A stretch of 64,000 nucleotides of DNA from Candidatus Latescibacterota bacterium (lineage in GTDB: Bacteria > Latescibacterota > UBA2968 > UBA8231), in contig OZ242214.1 in NCBI GenBank assembly GCA_965206595.1, positions 704,001-768,000 on the forward strand. The letters are read 5' to 3'. Both the position numbers and the translations under genes were made by a program. Shown here one piece after another: positions 1 to 9,049 of the stretch. The notes below the pieces were generated by a model that ran no database searches, was not told the DNA's origin, and saw only the letters and a program-made list of their open reading frames with translations. Every line of letters begins with the position of its first letter. The stretch's first letter is position 1.

Positions 1-1231
1 GAAATTTCTCGATGCGGCCGGGCACTATATTGCTTCTCAAAAAAGCATGGAGAGTATGTGCGCCGTTTCAGCGCATGCAGCGGCGTTAATGATGGTTTCG
101 GATCTGAGAGAAGCCGCCAATGGATTCGAAACAGCCAGGGCCCTGTCGCAAAAGCAAAAAGAGATTCCGTTCGAAATTGCGTCTGGGATCAACCTGGGCC
201 AGGTTTACTCAGATCTGGGCGAGACAGACAACTCGGAAGAGGTATTTGACCGGGCTATCAAAACGGCGAAAGAAAATGGTGTTGGGTCTTTGCTTGCAAT
301 GGCCATCCATCAAAAAGGACTTCTCCAACTCAGGATCGGAGAATACGAAAAGGCGATGTCCTGCTGCGAGATGGCCCTTACGGTGTTCGAAACGATCCAG
401 GCAGGAAGGGGGCTCGTAGCCGTGCGTTGTACCATGGGTATAGTTTATCTGTCCCGGGGGCAAATTCGGGAGGCGGAAAAAATATTCGGCGAAAACATGA
501 GATCGGTCGCAAATCGGCAGATGTCCCAGGATCATGTCCGCATTCTGACGAATTATGCAATTTTACATTTAATGAATAATCGGTTGAACGAGGCAGCGGA
601 GCTGTTGGCCAAGGTTTTGGAAACGAATACCAGGTTGGGGGATGACCATCACAAGGCAAAAATTTTGGTTTTATCAGGTGAGATATCAGGTACAGACGAG
701 CCAACATCTGGCCTCTTGTGGATTCAAAAGGGATTGGCCTTAATTAGGGAACTGGAATACAAGAAAGGAGAAGTGGATATTCTCGTCCGTTTAAGCATGC
801 AACAAGTTGCCATGGGGGATTACAAGGCAGGGAAAATTTCATTGGAGAAGGCCCGTGCGGTGGCGACTGCGATTGGGTATGCCAATGGTAAATTTCGAAG
901 TGGAAATTCCCTGGCCGAAGTTTATTCGATGGAAGGGCATGGGGAGCGCGCCATGCATATCACGAAAAATATCGTTGAAGCGGCTCGAAAAACCCGGAAT
1001 ATTTTCGAGGAGATAAGGGCGTACGAAAGGATTGGTATCATACTGGTCGGGCAAAACGATGTGTTCCAGGGATTGTCCTATTTTGAAAGGGCCGTGGAAA
1101 TGGCAAACAATGTCGGTTGCCACGTGCTGAAAAGTGAAATGTCGACGAGAATAGGAATGATTTTTGAACTAAAAGGATTGGTTGAGTTGGCTGATGAATT
1201 TAAAGCACGAAGGGTGGTCCTGATGAGCTGA
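1..1231 (+). CDS. Tetratricopeptide-repeat protein (5' end lies outside the window)
   Basis: Frame is open from nt 2 to the TGA at 1229-1231. Repeated TPR-like helices (NLGQVYSDLG, MGIVYLSRGQ, IGIILVGQND). Confidence 0.8.
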   Translation, partial: KFLDAAGHYIASQKSMESMCAVSAHAAALMMVSDLREAANGFETARALSQKQKEIPFEIASGINLGQVYSDLGETDNSEEVFDRAIKTAKENGVGSLLAMAIHQKGLLQLRIGEYEKAMSCCEMALTVFETIQAGRGLVAVRCTMGIVYLSRGQIREAEKIFGENMRSVANRQMSQDHVRILTNYAILHLMNNRLNEAAELLAKVLETNTRLGDDHHKAKILVLSGEISGTDEPTSGLLWIQKGLALIRELEYKKGEVDILVRLSMQQVAMGDYKAGKISLEKARAVATAIGYANGKFRSGNSLAEVYSMEGHGERAMHITKNIVEAARKTRNIFEEIRAYERIGIILVGQNDVFQGLSYFERAVEMANNVGCHVLKSEMSTRIGMIFELKGLVELADEFKARRVVLMS

Positions 1232-1388
1232 ATGAATTAACATGACACTAGTTGAGACGGGCGTCAGATTGGGGGCGCAGGGTGATCGAGGACAAGATGA
1301 AATTTCGCGGAAACGAACCCGAATTTCAGGCCCTTGTTGAGGGAGGCCACTCCTTTACCAAATTCATAACCTTGAAAGGGCTAGACTT

Positions 1389-1613
1389 ATGAAACCATTG
1401 AAGAAACCTTCATACAGGGACTACGATGCATCGGGCAACGTCGATGCCTATCACGATGAGTTGACAGGTTTGAAGTTCTTTGTTTGCGGTTTAGCAACTG
1501 TTGCTGCATTAGCTTCTTCAGTGATTACTGGGCCGCTCGGCGGGGCACTGGCGGTTTCGTCAGCCTTGCACTGTGGCTTTATCACCGCTGTAAGCTACGG
1601 CTGGTTTGGTTGA
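1389..1613 (+). CDS. Putative bacteriocin/RiPP precursor peptide, 74 aa
   Basis: RBS-like GAAAGGG 8 nt upstream. Charged leader MKPLKKP...NVDAY, then an Ala/Gly/Ser-rich hydrophobic core with Cys33 and Cys62. Lies directly before the exporter genes. Confidence 0.7.
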   Translation: MKPLKKPSYRDYDASGNVDAYHDELTGLKFFVCGLATVAALASSVITGPLGGALAVSSALHCGFITAVSYGWFG

Positions 1614-1821
1614 TGAAAACGAACGAGGCTTGAATTTGAGCCTCCAGATTTAATCTGAAGGAGATGGCCTCCCTCACTTTTATTTGTGGCGAATATGAAG
1701 GAACATGTAACTGTCTGAAAGAATGGAAGAGAGTCCAGGGTAAGCATGGGGTGTAACTCATAAATGAGAAAAAGAGTCTGAGTTTGGTCCCTACCCCCTC
1801 GAATCGGAAATTCAGATAAAA

Positions 1822-3447
1822 ATGCTAAAAGTTTGGTGGTACATGACATGGCTCCGTTTAAAGGTCGAGCGAACTGAATCAAAATCGGGTCCTGGAAGTT
1901 ATGCCGTTAAAATATCGGGGGAGATAGCGATCCTGGTCCTCTCGCTCTGGGCCTCGGCAGGCGTACACCACGCGTTGCTTCATGCTATGGGTAACGAGGG
2001 CTTGATGGTTCGGGAATTGCTTCACGCATTGTTTGCCGGTTTGTCGGTGGTATGGGTGGTTCTAGGGCTCAAGAGTATCCTGAGTACTTCTGTTTGTAAG
2101 GACCTTCGCGAAACCGTCAAGTATCCATGGACCTACAAACAGGTTTACGCTGCCGGAGTGGTTAGAACCCTTTCTGACCGATGGCTGATTATGTTTGCAC
2201 CTGTTTTGGTCTCTTCGGCGATGGCATGTGGATTGTTGAAATCAATAAAAACCGGACTTATCTGCGGTTTTTCAATGATTGCGTTTGCTGTGCTGATGGT
2301 AAGCTGGATTCAGGCGTTGCGTTCGTGGATAGATATTTCCCTTAGTTGGTGGATATCCAAATACGGTTTGGTCATACTTACAAGCTTAGCTTTCCTCATG
2401 GTAAATCTGATGTTGGCTTTGCTTCTTTTGAAGGATGGGTACATGCAGGAAATGATAACTCAATTAGGAAAACTTCGTTTGTCTTCCTATCTCAGATTTA
2501 CACCACCGGGCATGCTCGGTGATATTTTCTATTTTCTGAGTCGGGGAAGAACTTATGATTCGATAGTCTGTTTCCTTGGGCTTATGGGATACCTCTCATT
2601 GGGGTATCTCGTGTCACGCAGAAGCACCATGAGTCTGATCTTCAACGAACCCTCGGTTAGTAGAGGAAGTCAGGGGCTACCAGGCAATATTTATTTTAAA
2701 ATGTGTGGCATTGCGGAGCGCTTTCTTCCCATGAAGTATATCCCTTTTTTTACCCACGAGCTATTATATCTTTGTAGATGGAATCAGTTCCGGGTAATGG
2801 CCGTTTTCCAAGTAGTTATTGCCTGGTGCATGTCTGTAGTAGTCCTTTCGGCACGGTTTGAGTACTATTGGGCCTTCTTGGTTTTCTATTTCGGGGGAAT
2901 GAGTGGTTTCATGCACTCCCTCTTCAATAAAGAGTCTAAAGGTGTTGTTCACCACTTTCTTTTGCCGATTCATTTACGAGATGTGCTTATCAGTAAAAAT
3001 TTGGCATTGGTATGTCTTCAGATTTTCATTAACTGGATGTATCTTCCAGGGATCCTTTTCTGGATCTGGCAAGGGAAGGAAACAGACCTGACACTGGCCC
3101 TTGCATTGATTCCATTCACCGTTTGCGTTCCCATTTACGTTGCCGCGACAGGAAATTTTTCATCCGTTTTTTTTCCAAAGAAACTCAAATCCTTTGGTTC
3201 GATGAGTCAGAGATCCTGGTCGATTCAAAGTGTTTGGTTGATTTTAATTGCCTGGCTGCCCGCGGTTATTTTTATCGGAATCAACGTTTACGTTTTCCAT
3301 TTTGTCTTACGTTCCCCACAATTGACGATTTTCAGCTTTTTCCTAGTTTTTCTAGTGAGTCTGGGTACCTACTTTTTTGCCATCAAAAAATCATCAGCTC
3401 TTATGAAATCCAGACAAGAAAAACTGCTGCAAGTGCTTTTCAAATAG
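1822..3447 (+). CDS. Polytopic membrane protein, putative ABC exporter/immunity permease
   Basis: 541 aa with many hydrophobic segments in two halves. Adjacent to an ABC ATPase. Confidence 0.7.
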   Translation: MLKVWWYMTWLRLKVERTESKSGPGSYAVKISGEIAILVLSLWASAGVHHALLHAMGNEGLMVRELLHALFAGLSVVWVVLGLKSILSTSVCKDLRETVKYPWTYKQVYAAGVVRTLSDRWLIMFAPVLVSSAMACGLLKSIKTGLICGFSMIAFAVLMVSWIQALRSWIDISLSWWISKYGLVILTSLAFLMVNLMLALLLLKDGYMQEMITQLGKLRLSSYLRFTPPGMLGDIFYFLSRGRTYDSIVCFLGLMGYLSLGYLVSRRSTMSLIFNEPSVSRGSQGLPGNIYFKMCGIAERFLPMKYIPFFTHELLYLCRWNQFRVMAVFQVVIAWCMSVVVLSARFEYYWAFLVFYFGGMSGFMHSLFNKESKGVVHHFLLPIHLRDVLISKNLALVCLQIFINWMYLPGILFWIWQGKETDLTLALALIPFTVCVPIYVAATGNFSSVFFPKKLKSFGSMSQRSWSIQSVWLILIAWLPAVIFIGINVYVFHFVLRSPQLTIFSFFLVFLVSLGTYFFAIKKSSALMKSRQEKLLQVLFK

Positions 3448-3460
3448 GGAAGGCCCAGAA

Positions 3461-4240
3461 ATGAACGTAGCCATATCCGCACAAAACCTGATCAAGGAAT
3501 TCGGGCCTGTCACTGCTGTGAAAAATCTTTCCCTTTCCATAAACGAAGGAACCTTTTTCGGTCTCCTTGGAACCAACGGGGCGGGAAAGACAACAGCCGT
3601 TGGGATGCTTTCCGGGTTGCTCCAACCCACGTCAGGTATCGTCCAGATCCTTGGTAAGAACTTTCACCTCCATGGGATCGAAATTAAACGCCAACTCGGT
3701 GTTATGACAGACACCCTTGGCCTGTACGAACAATTGACTGGAGCGGAGTACCTCGCATTTATCGGCAAAGTTTTCTCCATCCCCGACCGGGTTATCTTCG
3801 CCAGGTGTGAAGAATTATTTGAATTGATGGGTTTGGCAGCTGCGCGCAACGGGTTCATTTATAGATATTCCTCGGGGATGAAGAAAAAGCTTTACCTGGC
3901 CTCCTTATTCATCAGGTCTCCCCGCGTTTTAATTATGGACGAACCTTTCGAGGGAATTGATCCGGCCTCCGCAATAGTCATACAGGAGGTCCTCCTCTCC
4001 ATGCAGGATCGGGGAATCACCATTTTTCTCACCTCTCATAATCTGGAACTGGTTGAAAAGCTTTGTTCGAAGGTTGCCATAATGCATGAGGGAGAGATCA
4101 TTCACACGGCCAAACGGGACCGTTATCCGCCCGCCGCAGGGAGAGTTTCCGGCCTGGAGAAAGTTTTCCTGGAGCTCGTGCGTCACCCCGGTCAAGGCGG
4201 GAACCTCTCCTGGCTGAATGCAGGGCCGTCTCCGGTATAG
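3461..4240 (+). CDS. ABC transporter ATP-binding protein (ABC-2/drug export type)
   Basis: Walker A GTNGAGKT, signature YSSGM, Walker B LIMDEP, H-loop TSH. Confidence 0.95.
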   Translation: MNVAISAQNLIKEFGPVTAVKNLSLSINEGTFFGLLGTNGAGKTTAVGMLSGLLQPTSGIVQILGKNFHLHGIEIKRQLGVMTDTLGLYEQLTGAEYLAFIGKVFSIPDRVIFARCEELFELMGLAAARNGFIYRYSSGMKKKLYLASLFIRSPRVLIMDEPFEGIDPASAIVIQEVLLSMQDRGITIFLTSHNLELVEKLCSKVAIMHEGEIIHTAKRDRYPPAAGRVSGLEKVFLELVRHPGQGGNLSWLNAGPSPV

Positions 4241-4348
4241 TGTCCTGTCCACAAATACCCAAACCGTCGCTTCCGCTTCCTCCGCCAATCCGTCCTGTCT
4301 TCACGCTTTCGCGGCTTTCCCCCACCTGATGGATGCAGCTGATGCAAG

Positions 4349-6163
4349 ATGGGCTTCTTTCGACAACTTGAGCTAGCGCGGCAAAGGGGCTTTACCCTCC
4401 GCCAGGTTTTTACCTCCAGCCCGTCACCGGGTGTGGGACGATTCCTTTTTTTGCGGCTGCTTTTCTTTTTTCAGCCCTACTGGATTCGGGTAATCGAAGC
4501 CGCCGCCTGCATGGTCTTCTCCACTGTATTGGCCCTTCCCATGCCCTTGTTCTCCATTTACATAATCGACCATATTATCGTGAACCATCAGGAGGATATT
4601 CTCCATTTGGTCTGCGCTGTGCTAGGGACCATTGTCCTTTTGGGAATGGTTTTGAGTTTTTTACAGCACTATTTGCTGCTGATATTTACCAGACGGGTGT
4701 TTTTCGATATAGAACTGAAATTGTTTCAAAAGATTCATTCGGTACCACTCTCCTATTTGAAAGCCCACGCTAGCGGCTACATTGCCACAAGAATCAGCGA
4801 CGATGTCAGGCAGCTTGGGTCCATGATGGCCGGAGCCTATATCGAAGGACTCAGCAGCATCACCGTTTTAGTCGCCGCGACCTGCATCATGTTCACCATT
4901 AACGCGGAATTGGGCTTTGCCGTCCTTGTTGTGTTACCGGGGATTGTTGCCGTCAATTTTTTGTTTGGGCGCAAAGTCCAGGTGCTGAGTGACCGGGTGC
5001 AGGAGCGAAAGGGCATCACGAATGCTGTCCGGTTGGAGTCCCTGGAATCGGCGCACGTAGTCAGGGCGTTCGACCGGGAAAAATTGGAAGCACGTCGGCT
5101 TGTGTCCGCCTTGCACTCCGAATTCGACGCCGATCTGTCCAGAAATGTCACCATGACCTGCGGCCATCTGGTGCAGGTTTTTCTCTATGCTCTCGGCGGA
5201 ATTCTCCTGCTGTGGTACGGGACCTACGCAATCATGCGCGACGAGCTGACCCTCGGTGAATTCATGGCCTTCAATATGCTGGTTTCCTATATATACGGAC
5301 CGATAGGGCAGCTCACTGGAATTTACCTGAACTTCAAGCGAGGAGTAGGAGTCTTGAAACGGGTTTTTGGGGTTCTGGATGTTCCGGAAGAAAAAGGACG
5401 AGGCGGAAGCTTTCGGAGCCCAGCAAAGACTGGAAAAGTTGTCATTGAGGATTTGCATTTTGGGTACATTCCCCAGCTTCCGGTATTGAAGGGAGTAAAC
5501 CTCGTCCTTGAACCTGGAAAAATATCTGTCGTAGTGGGGCCCAGCGGGTCCGGAAAAACCACCTTGGTTCATCTTCTGTTACGGCTGTACGAGCCGATTT
5601 CGGGTCGAATGCTGCTCGACGGGTACGATTTTCTATCATATGACGTACGCGTGCTTCGCCGGAACGTCGCGCTTGTCGAACAGAACCTCCGGTTGTTTCC
5701 CGGGACCATTTGGGAGAATATCGCCTACGGCAAGCCGGGGGCTACCAAGGAGGAGGTTCTGGCTGCGGCGGAATCCACCAATTGCATGGAGTTCATCAAC
5801 CGGTTTCCAGCCCGCTTGGAGACGCGGCTTAGTGGCGACGGCGTCCAACTTTCCGCCGGGCAGAAGCAGCGCGTTGCGTTAGCCCGCGCCCTGATCCGGG
5901 ATCCCAGACTTCTCGTGCTGGACGAGGGCACCGCCTCACTTGATCCACGGGCGGAAAATCTCGTTGGGGACTCGTTGCGCCGCGCCGCGCAGGGCCGTAC
6001 GACGCTACTGGTCGCCCACCGTCTTTCCACGGTGTTGTTCGCAGATCGAATTTTCGTGCTGGTGGGGGGCCGGATCGTTGAGGAGGGTACGTTACAGGAG
6101 CTTCTTCGAACGGGGGGGCATTTCACCACCATATACGAGCAGAACTTGAAGAGGGCAGGATGA
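4349..6163 (+). CDS. ABC exporter, fused permease+ATPase, without a C39 peptidase domain
   Basis: N-terminal ABC membrane domain, then GPSGSGKT, LSAGQKQR and LVLDE. Confidence 0.93.
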   Translation: MGFFRQLELARQRGFTLRQVFTSSPSPGVGRFLFLRLLFFFQPYWIRVIEAAACMVFSTVLALPMPLFSIYIIDHIIVNHQEDILHLVCAVLGTIVLLGMVLSFLQHYLLLIFTRRVFFDIELKLFQKIHSVPLSYLKAHASGYIATRISDDVRQLGSMMAGAYIEGLSSITVLVAATCIMFTINAELGFAVLVVLPGIVAVNFLFGRKVQVLSDRVQERKGITNAVRLESLESAHVVRAFDREKLEARRLVSALHSEFDADLSRNVTMTCGHLVQVFLYALGGILLLWYGTYAIMRDELTLGEFMAFNMLVSYIYGPIGQLTGIYLNFKRGVGVLKRVFGVLDVPEEKGRGGSFRSPAKTGKVVIEDLHFGYIPQLPVLKGVNLVLEPGKISVVVGPSGSGKTTLVHLLLRLYEPISGRMLLDGYDFLSYDVRVLRRNVALVEQNLRLFPGTIWENIAYGKPGATKEEVLAAAESTNCMEFINRFPARLETRLSGDGVQLSAGQKQRVALARALIRDPRLLVLDEGTASLDPRAENLVGDSLRRAAQGRTTLLVAHRLSTVLFADRIFVLVGGRIVEEGTLQELLRTGGHFTTIYEQNLKRAG

Positions 6164-6603
6164 GAATCCCGGCAACAATCGAATGGCGCGCGGGTGCCAT
6201 GCTCGTCGGGGCGGCCGCGGTTTTCCTCCTTCTGCTGATTGTCCTTACGGTGACGCGCATGGATGTGGGGATGGAAGTCGAGGGGAAGATCATGCTCACA
6301 GAGACGGGTTGGGTAATGACCACCAAGGTTCCTGGGGACCGGGTCGCTTTTTTGCACAGGTGCAGGCAACTCAAAATCCGGAGCCGTGGAAATGAGGTCA
6401 GGTACGTGGAGGTCGGAAAGGTAAGTGGATGCCTAGCGGACGGGGAGCCCTCGGTTGCAGTGCGGATCGAAATCGACGGGACAGGGGGCGATGCAGCCGG
6501 GACGGACTCCTTTCAGGTGGTAGAAGCTACGCTCGTGCAAGAGCAAGGGGTGTCCATCCTGAGAGCCCTGTTCTCCAGTATCCTGGATCGCCCCGGAGTT
6601 TAG
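6160..6603 (+). CDS. Small membrane-anchored protein, possibly a minimal HlyD-like adaptor
   Basis: ATGA overlap with the exporter. One N-terminal TM helix followed by a beta-rich region. Confidence 0.55.
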   Translation: MRIPATIEWRAGAMLVGAAAVFLLLLIVLTVTRMDVGMEVEGKIMLTETGWVMTTKVPGDRVAFLHRCRQLKIRSRGNEVRYVEVGKVSGCLADGEPSVAVRIEIDGTGGDAAGTDSFQVVEATLVQEQGVSILRALFSSILDRPGV

Positions 6604-6756
6604 GGCTTGCCACTATCAACTTAGCTGCCGGGGCCATGTTTCCACGGCGCAGAATTTCCATGGTTTTTCGGGTCACCATTCCCCGTGAATCCTTACGGGA
6701 GGCACTTCGTGGTTTACGCTTTCCACAATAGTGGATTCAAGCTGAGACTGAGACTT

Positions 6757-7383
6757 ATGAGAAGTCGCCGCAGACTCATTGCAACGTCAATTTTGTCAGG
6801 CATCCTGGGAATCGCAGCTTTCGGGCTCCTGTGGTTTCACAACCGGTACGGCGTCGAAAACATCATCCTCACAGGGCACACCTTTCCGCGCCTTGAGCTC
6901 ACGGATCTTGCGGGAGAGACCGTTGACCTCGACAGCTTTCGCGGCAAGAAGATAATCGCCGTGTTCCTCGATCTGGGTTGCGGTTATTGCCAAGAACAGC
7001 TCAAAGTCCTGGACGCAATACACCACCAGCATGGGCAGGACGGCAAATTCTCCATAGTAGCTGTTGCTACCTACGGCTCCGTTGTGCCTCGAAACTTCCA
7101 GTCCGGTGATGCTTTTTCCTTTCCGCTCTGGATGGAATCCAAGCTTCAACTACGAGAAAAACTCGGAACCTCAGCTGTCCCGGCACTGTTTCTCATCGAC
7201 GAGGAAGGCATCCTGTTGCATAAGCACGTAGGTTATAAGGCCTTTCGGCAAGTCCGAGGAATCATTGATTCCATGGTTCAGGATCACAAGTCCCGGTGTC
7301 CTCTCTCATCAATCCCTCGCTATTCCACCGGCGGTCCGTCCGGGCTGTCGGCGTTGCCTTCAGTCGCCCGTTCTCCCCGGTAA
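6757..7383 (+). CDS. Membrane-anchored TlpA/ResA-like thiol-disulfide redoxin
   Basis: N-terminal TM helix, CGYC motif, VPALFLIDEEG cis-Pro loop. ATG 6757 is preferred over the ORF start at 6685. Confidence 0.85.
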   Translation: MRSRRRLIATSILSGILGIAAFGLLWFHNRYGVENIILTGHTFPRLELTDLAGETVDLDSFRGKKIIAVFLDLGCGYCQEQLKVLDAIHHQHGQDGKFSIVAVATYGSVVPRNFQSGDAFSFPLWMESKLQLREKLGTSAVPALFLIDEEGILLHKHVGYKAFRQVRGIIDSMVQDHKSRCPLSSIPRYSTGGPSGLSALPSVARSPR

Positions 7384-7431
7384 GACTCGCCCCTCCGGTT
7401 TGCGCAAACCGATTGCCTGAACTGCGGATAC

Positions 7432-8118
7432 ATGGCTTTTCTTCCTTCCCTGCGACGCCTGGCCCTGGTGATTTTCTCGCCTTTCCTCGCATTCGACGAA
7501 ATTTCCGAACAGCCGACCTGGATATGCGCATATTTCACAATCGCTTTTGCAACTGCCATTTCGGCCTGGTATACTACCACGGTTTTTCAGCAGACCTTGT
7601 TCCTTGTTCCTGGTACTCTTCCGGATTCCCAGGCAGCTGGCGTATCATCGATCGAACAGGCAGTAAGGTATGCATCTACGGCGGTTTCCTTTTTCGTAAC
7701 TTTGCTTTCCTGGTCCGTTTCCGCGTTTCTACTCTGGTTGATTATTCAAATCTTCGAGGGATTGGCCAGCATCAAATCGATCTTGTCGGTGGTTGCGCAC
7801 GCAAGCGTCGCTACCCTGCTCCACGTTGTAACGGGATCGATCATCCTTTTCATCCGAACCCAAAACGGCGAGCTTGCCCCTGAGATTCTGCAGATAAGAA
7901 TGGGGCTCGATCTCTTTTGGAAAGAGACGACCCACCCTGTCCTGAATGTGATCCTTGCGGACGTCAATCCGTTCAAGGTGTGGTATAACTTTCTTCTGAC
8001 TCTCGGTATTCAAAGGGCCTGTCGATTCAGCTGGCTGCGCGCCGGCGGCATCGTTGGCGTGTTTTGGCTGGTAACACTCGCCTTGTGGGCCGGTTTCACC
8101 TTCGTGCTGCCGTCATAA
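7432..8118 (+). CDS. YIP1 family membrane protein
   Basis: N-terminal 'IFSPFLAFDEISEQPTW' pattern, about 5 TM helices, 'NPFKVW...LGI' C-terminal pattern. Confidence 0.75.
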   Translation: MAFLPSLRRLALVIFSPFLAFDEISEQPTWICAYFTIAFATAISAWYTTTVFQQTLFLVPGTLPDSQAAGVSSIEQAVRYASTAVSFFVTLLSWSVSAFLLWLIIQIFEGLASIKSILSVVAHASVATLLHVVTGSIILFIRTQNGELAPEILQIRMGLDLFWKETTHPVLNVILADVNPFKVWYNFLLTLGIQRACRFSWLRAGGIVGVFWLVTLALWAGFTFVLPS

Positions 8119-8248
8119 CCCTCATCGGCTTACAGCGCCCGTGGAAGCTCCATCCGAGCAGCCTCCCCGGCGCCCGGGAACCCGGTGTTGCGCTTGCCTC
8201 CTCGGCAGCCCTGTGGTAGACTCCAGCGCCATCTGCCCCTCCAACCTT

Positions 8249-9049
8249 GTGCTTTTAACCACCATCCTGGCCGTGACCCTCCTGTCCGGCCTTTACACCT
8301 CTCTCTGGGGCGCCTTCAAGGACTCTCCCTTCGAGGGGTTCAAGCCGCGAACCTTCCCTCGCAGCATCTGGTTCAGCCTCGCCATTTTCCTGGTGCTGTA
8401 TACCCTTCCCCCGTTCAGCCATCGCCTGGCCGGAGTCGGGATGTTCCAGCTCTTCTTCCTGGTCATGGGGATCGAGCGGTTCCTCGCCGAGATCTACAAG
8501 GGCTTCTTCCGCACCGAAGACCAGGAGAAGTACTTCGTCCCCTCCCAAATCACCTTTTTCGGGCGGCACGTCGAGAGCGATCTCCTGCGCTACAGCGCCG
8601 GCACCGTGATCGTCGCCGCGGTGTTCGCCGTGACCCTCATAGAGATCCCCGTCGAGCGCTTCCTCTGGTTCGTCCTCATTGCCTACGCCACCGGGTTGGT
8701 TGTGTCCCTCGGAGGTGCCTACAAGGACGCCCCGTTCGAGGGGTTCAAGCCCCTGAAATTCCAGCGCTCCGGTCTCGTGCTGGCCCTTCTCAGCCCGCTG
8801 TTCTACTTCCTTAACGATCCCACCGCCCCGGTTTCGGCCGGGTTCCTCATCTACATGAACGGCGGCCTCGAGCGCTTTTCCGTCGAGTACTACAAGACCT
8901 ACGTGCAACGCAACATGTCCGGGAAGTTCCGCCCGGATCTCGTGCGTCTCGAGCAGTTCGTGCAGACCCGGGAGAAATTTCACTATCTCGCCCTGGTGAT
9001 CGTCGCCGCCCTTGCGGTGCTCTACGTCGTCGAGGTGCGCGCCTTGTAA
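8249..9049 (+). CDS. Uncharacterised membrane protein with a two-fold internal repeat
   Basis: GAFKDSPFEGFKPRTFPRS / GAYKDAPFEGFKPLKFQRS and GIERFLAEIYK / GLERFSVEYYK. Start is uncertain (ORF open from 8141). Confidence 0.75.
   Translation: MLLTTILAVTLLSGLYTSLWGAFKDSPFEGFKPRTFPRSIWFSLAIFLVLYTLPPFSHRLAGVGMFQLFFLVMGIERFLAEIYKGFFRTEDQEKYFVPSQITFFGRHVESDLLRYSAGTVIVAAVFAVTLIEIPVERFLWFVLIAYATGLVVSLGGAYKDAPFEGFKPLKFQRSGLVLALLSPLFYFLNDPTAPVSAGFLIYMNGGLERFSVEYYKTYVQRNMSGKFRPDLVRLEQFVQTREKFHYLALVIVAALAVLYVVEVRAL

Follow-up and report, generated by a model that had tools for sequence, protein, structure and literature searches.

The first 8,118 nucleotides of a 64,000-nucleotide stretch of DNA from a Candidatus Latescibacterota bacterium (the window, C1:704001-768000 of genome G000) contain a gene cassette built around a 74-amino-acid (aa) peptide. 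With moderate confidence, we consider this locus to be the precursor and export cassette of a leader-directed pathway for a peptide made on the ribosome and modified after translation (RiPP) that involves no radical SAM enzyme. The peptide is probably trimmed, and perhaps acyl-capped, by a remotely encoded protease and carrier pair, and comparison of sequences points to an undescribed bacteriocin-like branch. The source genome G000 is a single contig of 7.05 Mb (GC content 0.637, 93% complete). It is one of 168 compared genomes of the same phylum (G-numbers), among which G001 and G002 are sister genomes of the same genus; L-numbers denote extracted loci.

The ORF list of the window has eight open reading frames (ORFs) at 1-8118, all co-oriented on the plus strand, in agreement with the earlier note on this DNA. 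The block is also AT-richer, as claimed there: its GC content is 0.505 versus 0.671 over the remaining window, and the two 60-nt spot counts quoted in the note were reproduced (0.467 and 0.767). The features are:

1..1231, plus strand: tetratricopeptide repeat (TPR) protein, 3' part of the gene (TPR_12, E-value 4e-23)
1389..1613, plus strand: precursor peptide, 74 aa, with leader 1389..1451 and core 1452..1613 (no Pfam or NCBIfam family)
1822..3447, plus strand: ABC-2-like permease, 541 aa, about 12 transmembrane (TM) segments (language-model look-alikes; no Pfam or NCBIfam family)
3461..4240, plus strand: ABC ATPase, DrrA/lantibiotic-protection-like, partner of the permease (PF00005, E-value 4e-24)
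4349..6163, plus strand: MsbA/HlyB-type ABC exporter without C39 domain (PF00664 and PF00005)
6160..6603, plus strand: 147-aa single-TM protein, putative adaptor (no Pfam family; language-model look-alikes)
6685..7383, plus strand: membrane-anchored ResA/TlpA-like redoxin with CGYC (PF00578, PF08534, NF002854 below cut-off)
7432..8118, plus strand: YIP1/YknW-like membrane protein (PF04893, E-value 7e-11; NF052650, E-value 2e-15, below cut-off)
8119..8282, no strand: right edge of the swappable cassette (identity with G002 resumes at 8282)

Judged by comparison, the 74-aa ORF is a real precursor with a conserved leader and a variable hydrophobic core, and its place at the centre of the block, proposed in the earlier note, holds. 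It is more than a chance ORF, because the permease is found in 14 of the 168 genomes, the gene order is kept, and a leader-bearing ORF precedes the permease. The leader (residues 1-21) has the form M..LxK...Y...VxAY and ends with VDAY here. Positions M1, L4, K6, Y12 and Y21 are invariant across 17 aligned precursors, and the conserved block of the aligned leaders ends in [AG]Y. The mean pairwise identity is 51% in the leader versus 27% in the core (136 pairs, many of them close kin). A precursor profile retrieved 57 proteins among 8,000 scored candidates, the window peptide included, and all 57 have the leader; the profile missed G002, where a different precursor was located by synteny. In the 7.05 Mb of G000 the leader pattern matches only one ORF, the window peptide; as the pattern was built from precursors including this peptide, the uniqueness is the informative part of this result. 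The leader is predicted, with good confidence, to be cut after Tyr21. The core (residues 22-74, 53 aa, about 5.29 kDa, isoelectric point 6.0) has a grand average of hydropathy (GRAVY) of +1.06 and is thus hydrophobic, as expected in the earlier note. The whole precursor ORF differs from its G001 counterpart by seven synonymous and six non-synonymous codon changes.

Searches with single sequences were almost blank, and therefore profiles were required. As a single query the permease matches in 4 of 61 genomes; in other single-sequence searches it had one match and the peptide found only itself, and the exporter query had no match in metagenome contigs. In contrast to these searches, the permease profile has matches in 14 of the 168 genomes, G000 included. 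Among 1.84 billion representatives the permease has 38 relatives. In the fetched loci the order (TPR)-precursor-permease-ATPase-exporter-147-aa protein-(redoxin)-(YIP1) is kept. In the earlier note, transporter clusters without a similar small ORF were to count against the proposal; instead, a small ORF with the common N-terminus lies ahead of the permease in 13 of the 14 genomes. In G166 and G088 the leader-bearing ORF was found on a separate short contig. The exception is G165, where the precursor site has been taken over by unrelated DNA. Split genes occupy the permease position in L252, L258 and L248; they match the permease profile at E-values of 0.04-6 only, and their homology, suggested by position, is thus tentative.

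Three or four diverged precursor copies are arranged in tandem in G019, G161, G166 and G167. Growth of such arrays by duplication of promoter-gene units is suggested. By eye, a near-identical block of about 50 bases is seen upstream of each tandem precursor (L010 7560-8685; L041; L044), and a short repeat flanks the permease start in the same three loci.

In G047 and G019, YIP1 is followed by a gene for a fusion protein of about 650 aa, in which an S8 protease is joined to DUF1611_N and DUF1611. All 14 permease-bearing genomes carry this fusion, versus 87 of the 168 phylum genomes. It lies within the cluster in 11 of the 14 (shortened by an insertion in G151) and is remote in G000 and G001; the cluster of G086 stops at a contig end. 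G000 has one fusion only and one leader ORF only. The fusion is accompanied there by an acyl carrier protein (ACP) gene:

C1:588174-590155 (L011 8174-10155), minus strand: S8-DUF1611 fusion, outside the window, 115 kb upstream
C1:587924-588208 (L011 7924-8208), minus strand: ACP, adjoining the fusion

Both the conserved leader and the fusion with its ACP were missed in the earlier note, where a look upstream of the window for a protease or radical SAM gene was advised. By eye, there is none among the ORFs listed in 28 kb upstream, and the genome-wide S8 and SPASM matches are located elsewhere, not just upstream of the cassette. No radical SAM or SPASM match occurs among the eight genes; the two SPASM matches of G000 are at 1.98 and 4.73 Mb.

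The ACP immediately follows the fusion in G047, G084, G087 and G089. In G019, G161, G165 and G166 the distance downstream is about 4 kb, and in the 20 kb fetched for G167 no ACP was seen. The phosphopantetheine serine is aligned in all 11 ACPs inspected, and all six that were scanned passed PF00550. For the remote fusion locus, no RNA data set was listed. In the G000 assembly, the fusion has a one-base homopolymer deletion relative to G001, producing an apparent frameshift. The missing base is present at full depth in contigs of all four public runs considered, from four studies; one of these runs is otherwise identical to G000 over 2 kb and may be the source sample. Thus the frameshift arose in the assembly, and the G000 fusion is intact. 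In the G001 orthologue the subtilisin D/H/S triad is present and hydrophobic segments are lacking, and therefore the fusion is predicted to be cytoplasmic, like the QhpE protease. The S8 domain (PF00082) has QhpE as its best NCBIfam match (148-157 bits, cut-off 165). Fusions of relatives match TIGR04066 over the full length (139, 99 and 131 bits, cut-off 200), and one of five ACPs matches TIGR04069 (19.8 bits, cut-off 70). Proteins of the TIGR04066/DUF1611 type and their ACP partners occur in peptide clusters, with functions that are annotated only. In one paper on such a cluster immunity was guessed as the role.

Comparison of loci indicates that the leader follows the fusion and not the core type. 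The relaxed leader motif has 21 matches in 80 fusion loci (816 kb) versus 3 in 73 loci with S8 proteases only (1,312 kb; 73 of 80 loci among the matches listed in the contig scan). A strict motif, set once the relaxed result was known, matches 8 ORFs in the 80 metagenome fusion loci, all 8 on the fusion strand, versus none in the 73 control loci. In a nearly blind test on 16 phylum loci chosen by the fusion alone, after exclusion of four chosen by precursor matches, the ACP is present in 16 and a strict leader ORF in 7. Other fusion loci contain HlyD-type exporters and the same leader, followed by cores that are either acidic and about 100 aa long or hydrophilic with four Cys, and in metagenome loci with radical SAM genes short Cys cores follow it. 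In G060, seven fusion-domain copies occur in one genome (L252-L257); the six fetched loci contain hydrophobic two-Cys, acidic long and hydrophilic four-Cys precursors. Weak support comes from complex prediction: the fusion with precursor residues 1-40 scored 0.43 versus 0.00 for the best control, the runs agreeing in at least 67% of contacts with a partner pLDDT (predicted local distance difference test) of at least 44. Of the 157 solved complexes, 18 passed at scores of at most 0.60, as did, out of 215 mismatches, both that passed. The result may reflect memory, as subtilisin-peptide complexes are common in the PDB.

The flanks of the cassette in G002 match those in G000 from window position 8282 onward and at 824-1209 bases upstream of the window. 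Between them lies a different cassette, also of low GC content (0.495):

L268 4493-8831 (G002): HlyD adaptor, exporter, 125-aa leader-bearing ORF and CPBP-like membrane protease

This cassette also lacks its own fusion. G000, G001 and G002 all retain an orthologous intact fusion and ACP at a remote site of host-like composition (GC content 0.69). In a quick tree of 46 DUF domains the three copies group at 99, and in-cluster copies are scattered over an unresolved backbone. The strongest argument for a maturase acting in trans, and for horizontal exchange of precursor and export genes, comes from the swap in G002 together with the retained remote pair; horizontal acquisition, suggested in the earlier note, thus finds support in the form of a mobile low-GC cassette.

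The same data bear on another possibility, that the cassette is stranded cargo in G000, its own maturase gene lost and the peptide unprocessed. The cassette indeed has no fusion in G000 and G001. Synonymous and non-synonymous changes relative to G001 are about equally frequent in most cassette genes, which shows only moderate constraint, and decayed copies exist in G151 and G165. However, G001 has the entire cassette at 92-99% amino-acid identity with all eight frames open in both species, the remote fusion and ACP are intact in three members of the genus, and in G002 a different leader-bearing cassette occupies the same site, also fusion-free. Stranded cargo thus seems very improbable.

The C-terminal domain of the G047 fusion was modelled with pLDDT 83.6 and pTM (predicted template modelling score) 0.84. 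The model matches the whole two-domain fold of 2g0t (Z 29.1, root-mean-square deviation (rmsd) 2.8, 306 residues aligned), 2obn (Z 27.8, rmsd 3.2, 313 aligned) and the N-acetyltransferase DgcN, 7xrj (Z 24.1, rmsd 4.0, 302 aligned); the next unrelated fold has Z 14.4. The DUF domain reaches 25-28 bits with the DgcN model NF041892 (cut-off 480), that is, the same fold in a different family. A fold that the modelled domain shares with 2g0t, 2obn and 7xrj at 16-22% identity shows no function. We propose tentatively that this domain acylates the peptide; the fold and the linkage to the ACP are seen in the loci, and the N-acylation chemistry would be an extrapolation from them. Indirect support may come, by analogy, from SacP23 of Paenibacillus polymyxa, an antibacterial peptide with a blocked N-terminus on which Edman sequencing failed. 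TIGR04066, an ACP-like protein and a subtilase are all encoded alongside SacP23, whose precursor leader is similar (PMC10731318).

One alternative, which we consider unlikely, is the same pathway without acylation by the DUF1611 domain. The latter would bind the leader, load the ACP or perform another nucleotide-dependent step, and any acyl transfer would be due to a BtrH-like or transglutaminase-like (papain-fold) neighbour, if it occurs at all. BtrH of the butirosin pathway is an ACP-dependent acyltransferase, and genes resembling BtrH_N lie beside the fusion in G000, G002, G047 and many more loci. The ACP of G084 carries a fused transglutaminase-like domain, and SIMIBI-type ATPases and ligases match the P-loop half of the DUF domain at Z of about 14. 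However, one BtrH query run against five genomes found no match in G019 (95% complete), G167 (96%), G084 (84%) and G089 (61%), all of which have the fusion, and the ACP neighbours the fusion in G019, G084 and G089. Moreover, among proteins that have the whole two-domain fold, the only one named by function is an N-acyltransferase.

Several genes around the fusions deserve mention. In G000 the BtrH_N-like gene is divergent from the fusion and lies beside a sigma-70 region-4 gene (L011 10453-11628 and 11652-12299); at the same remote site it is intact in G002 and present as fragments in G001. The ACP-transglutaminase locus of G084 (L036 3083-4435, 6413-7450) has a UshA-like protein with a CxC motif in the place of the redoxin and YIP1. 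A GT28-like glycosyltransferase follows the ACP in the G047 cluster only (L009 16593-17723).

The cysteines of the cores occur in even numbers. Among 67 unique cores, 34 have four, 30 have two, two have one and one has none; the counts are even only in 34 of 35 clusters at 70% identity and in 20 of 21 at 50%. In the best-sampled genus type (47 cores), 34 have all four cysteines, nine have the inner pair only (close kin, probably reflecting one event) and one the outer pair only; two look degenerate. In the window core, Cys33 and Cys62 lie on either side of a Gly/Pro turn and by position may be taken as the inner pair. These patterns fit nested disulfides across a helical hairpin. We thus expect, with some assurance, a disulfide-stapled helical hairpin closed after export, the bond being predicted from the cysteine pattern. 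The precursors of family f12 (L037 2696-2956, L038, L042) have no or one cysteine and a Gly/Trp-rich N-terminal part of the core; their clusters lack TPR, redoxin and YIP1 genes and are preceded by another ABC pair.

Of the two closures considered in the earlier note, disulfide-closed or cyclised, the former is probable (two or four cysteines in 64 of 67 cores), whereas the latter has lost its ground. A head-to-tail circular bacteriocin, perhaps closed by transpeptidation by the S8 domain, would agree with the hydrophobic core and the YIP1 and ABC genes. Yip1 genes are common in circular bacteriocin clusters, whose feature is SpoIIM/DUF95 (PMC8659200). However, PF01944 (SpoIIM/DUF95) has no match in G000 at 93% completeness, the control being positive in 6 of 14 genomes, and the analogy drawn in the earlier note from YIP1 is not supported. 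The core termini differ in length and residue, and terminal Cys pairs give an alternative closure of the hairpin. We regard the circular form as highly unlikely.

The redoxin was found in G000, G001, G047, G151, L147, L156, L252, L258 and L261, and its CxxC is conserved in four homologues. It is absent from the clusters of G019, G161, G165, G166, G167, G084 and G087-G089. Thus it should be considered accessory, and the earlier description of the redoxin as a part of the system applies to the window but not to the clusters of G019, G161, G165, G166 and G167.

The permease has 11 hydrophobic segments. Its nearest ESM Atlas clusters (0.96-0.98) have 12TM_1, ABC_tran_2 or ABC_export on 12-66% of members, which is a lead only; it is a probable immunity or membrane-clearing transporter. 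The partner ATPase has TIGR01188 and TIGR03740 matches below cut-off. The exporter consists of PF00664 (residues 50-318) and PF00005 (residues 380-529); Pfam and NCBIfam scans gave no C39 match, and the membrane domain begins at residue 50. The 147-aa protein, which follows the exporter directly in relatives too, has one TM segment (13-31). The nearest named Atlas clusters, at 0.92, are LcnD_C and AprE barrel, families borne by 45-54% of the members; they are again a lead only, and LcnD/HlyD-type adaptor families gave no hidden Markov model (HMM) match. From these model-based resemblances it is probably a minimal membrane-fusion/adaptor beta-barrel. The YIP1/YknW-like protein probably has an accessory or immunity function. 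A YknWXYZ-like set, comprising a second Yip1 gene, an RND adaptor, two MacB-like permeases and an ATPase, is located at C1:582352-587945 (L011 2352-7945) and converges on the remote fusion and ACP, likewise in G001 and G002; MacAB-like genes also lie downstream of the fusion in G019. Such a set may provide an outer-membrane export or resistance step for the peptide.

The TPR gene begins about 230 bases upstream of the window (probable ATG at C1:703768, full gene about 487 aa). Homologues with 22-29% identity lie ahead of the precursor in G047, G019, G151, G161 and G167, and share the N-terminal motif LPD[DE]...KP. This motif, LPD[DE]G...[LF]KP at C1:703850-703905 and in homologues, ends in KP, recalling LxKP of the precursor; it may be a leader mimic or a chance similarity. 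The protein could, with low confidence, be a chaperone for the hydrophobic precursor or a regulator.

A regulatory role is part of a further alternative: the peptide would signal in a strain-specific manner, or would reside in the membrane as a regulatory or structural mini-protein, with the TPR protein as an RNPP/AimR-like receptor. The TPR protein has weak matches to RNPP_C (E-value 1e-5, below cut-off) and AimR (E-value 0.011), and the same leader and maturase are also used for cores of about 100 aa that are acidic and hydrophilic and do not resemble bacteriocins. However, no DNA-binding domain was found on the TPR residues inside the window. A 53-aa core with GRAVY near +1 is far from the known short pheromones. 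The ABC-2-like pair, the YknW-like protein, the diversified tandem precursors and the cassette exchange suit competition better. This alternative is accordingly an improbable one, and an antibacterial peptide is the reading followed below.

The proposed pathway would be as follows. Firstly, the 74-aa precursor would be made in the cytoplasm, possibly kept soluble by the TPR protein. Secondly, the S8 domain of the fusion would read the LxK...VxAY leader and cut after Tyr21; the linkage is observed and, on the comparative evidence, cleavage is likely. Thirdly, the DgcN-fold domain with the adjacent ACP might acylate the newly exposed N-terminus, a step that is possible but less likely than the cleavage. 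The MsbA-type exporter and the small adaptor would then carry the 53-aa core over the inner membrane, and the anchored CxxC redoxin or the host Dsb system would link Cys33 to Cys62, stapling the hydrophobic helical hairpin. Finally, the product would hit the membranes of competitors, the ABC-2-like pair and YIP1 shielding the producer; we hold this membrane-directed action and its immunity to be reasonably probable.

A broader and more speculative proposal is an undescribed class of ribosomal lipopeptides, in which one cytoplasmic enzyme would cut the leader and N-acylate the core from a dedicated ACP via a DgcN/DUF1611 fold and not a GNAT enzyme. The module would serve interchangeable cassettes in about half of the phylum genomes (hydrophobic disulfide hairpins, acidic 100-aa proteins and Cys-rich radical SAM substrates), could act in trans, and would here yield an acylated disulfide-stapled membrane-active hairpin.

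A number of observations weigh against the proposed pathway. As the fusion is outside the cassette, its action on the window peptide rests on comparative evidence; the strict leader motif was set after the relaxed result, and base composition is not the same in the fusion loci and the S8-only loci. With its neutral to slightly acidic character, the core differs from cationic bacteriocins. The three unique cores with no or one cysteine all belong to family f12, one of the 47 genus-type cores has the first two cysteines only, contrary to nesting, and the redoxin-free clusters of the G019/G161/G165/G166/G167 genus encode peptides with 2-4 cysteines. The DUF domain is only 16-18% identical to DgcN, and the closer structural matches 2g0t and 2obn carry no assigned function. 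Its P-loop half resembles dethiobiotin synthetase and MinD-type ATPases, so that other chemistry is possible. The BtrH_N-like gene next to the G000 fusion (Pfam E-value 0.004) is a competing candidate for the acyl transfer. At the loci no enzyme for acyl loading was recognised, though no search was aimed at one. The block of SacP23 could come from another modification, and its measured mass, 3404, does not fit the predicted core (PMC10731318).

Pfam and NCBIfam scans of the peptide, the permease and the 147-aa protein give only chance-level matches (E-values 0.03-0.06), and scans for promoters (7 versus 7.1) and terminators (12 versus 11.7) were at chance. A 30-codon ORF near 1660-1750 lacks a spaced ribosome-binding site, as judged by eye. 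The right flank of the cassette is marked by a 302-aa membrane protein (8141-9049) that matches no Pfam family, repeats the motif SLxGAxKDxPFEGFKP internally and is kept in G001 and G002. Another low-GC island, C1:696734-698659, lies 7.3-5.3 kb upstream of the window, inside a stretch missing from G002. It has three small genes, of which by eye one is ATPase-like and one STAS-like.

The leader motif reveals precursors invisible to Pfam and NCBIfam, and the module is present in 87 of the 168 genomes of an uncultured phylum. The cassette is a simple test case, since it has no radical SAM enzyme and the precursor, fusion and ACP are three soluble parts. If acylation is true, it would be a non-GNAT route to ribosomal lipopeptides and a new class, and could account for the blocked N-terminus of SacP23. 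If the scheme holds, the short leader with its very tolerant cores could be an engineering tool.

We found no description of the cassette in the open literature, a coverage that leaves out most subscription papers and bioRxiv supplements, and the opinion of the earlier note that the combination belongs to no named class is supported. Class II disulfide bacteriocins and microcins have double-glycine leaders, e.g. colicin V and the Blp peptides. The window cassette resembles them in the hydrophobic Gly/Ala-rich core, the disulfide, the exporter with adaptor, the thiol-disulfide oxidoreductase and the strain-variable cassettes, but its leader has no Gly-Gly (the block ends in [AG]Y) and its exporter has no C39 domain. 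Glycocins of the sublancin type have a glycosyltransferase in the cluster, whereas family scans found none in the window cassette. With circular bacteriocins it shares Yip1 and ABC transporter genes nearby, which are common and not defining.

The N-acylated RiPPs, namely lipolanthines, goadvionins, lipoavitides and selidamides, are made with GNAT enzymes, and the proposed order, leader removal and then N-terminal acylation, is the same (PMC13647313). However, the eight genes include neither a GNAT nor a lanthionine synthetase, and the candidate transferase has the DUF1611 fold. DgcN uses acetyl-CoA. It acts in D-glutamate catabolism (PMC12363236); the whole two-domain fold of DgcN and DUF1611 proteins (7xrj, 2g0t, 2obn) is matched at Z 24-29, but at 16-22% identity, and in the present system the domain is joined to a protease and has an ACP as partner. 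QhpE is a cytoplasmic leader protease that takes off the QhpC leader before ABC export (PMC7876137). The QhpE/QhpF system is thus similar in its cytoplasmic subtilisin-like protease and ABC exporter, but QhpC is a subunit of an enzyme and receives its crosslinks from a radical SAM enzyme, and the QhpE model spans only the protease part of the fusion.

The flm cluster, an orphan RiPP cluster, is listed with an S8 peptidase of 638 aa, an ACP homologue of 87 aa, a holo-ACP synthase, an ABC transporter and tandem precursor genes (PMC12703449). From its length only, FlmH may be the same S8-DUF1611 fusion. The flm and ohk clusters differ from the window cassette by their radical SAM, arginase and cupin enzymes and by precursors of the DD(I/V)LF type.

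The closest relatives are CLI_3235/CcpM (TIGR04065/04066/04068/04069) and SacP23, which have the leader M-x-K-L-x-K...[IV]-x-A-[YF], a subtilisin-like protease (in trans here), a TIGR04066-related protein, an ACP-like protein and an ABC exporter. TIGR04065 does not match the window peptide at E-values up to 0.1, nor the homologous precursors, and HMM scores of the shared parts are below the family cut-offs. Unlike CLI_3235/CcpM, the cassette has no radical SAM gene, the protease and the TIGR04066-like domain are fused, the core is a long hydrophobic paired-Cys hairpin instead of a CxCxC-rich hydrophilic one, and TPR, ABC-2 pair, adaptor, redoxin and YIP1 genes are added. Judged from these likenesses in sequence, the cassette belongs to an annotated peptide-maturation module as a disulfide-hairpin branch free of radical SAM, and in this genus the maturase would act in trans.

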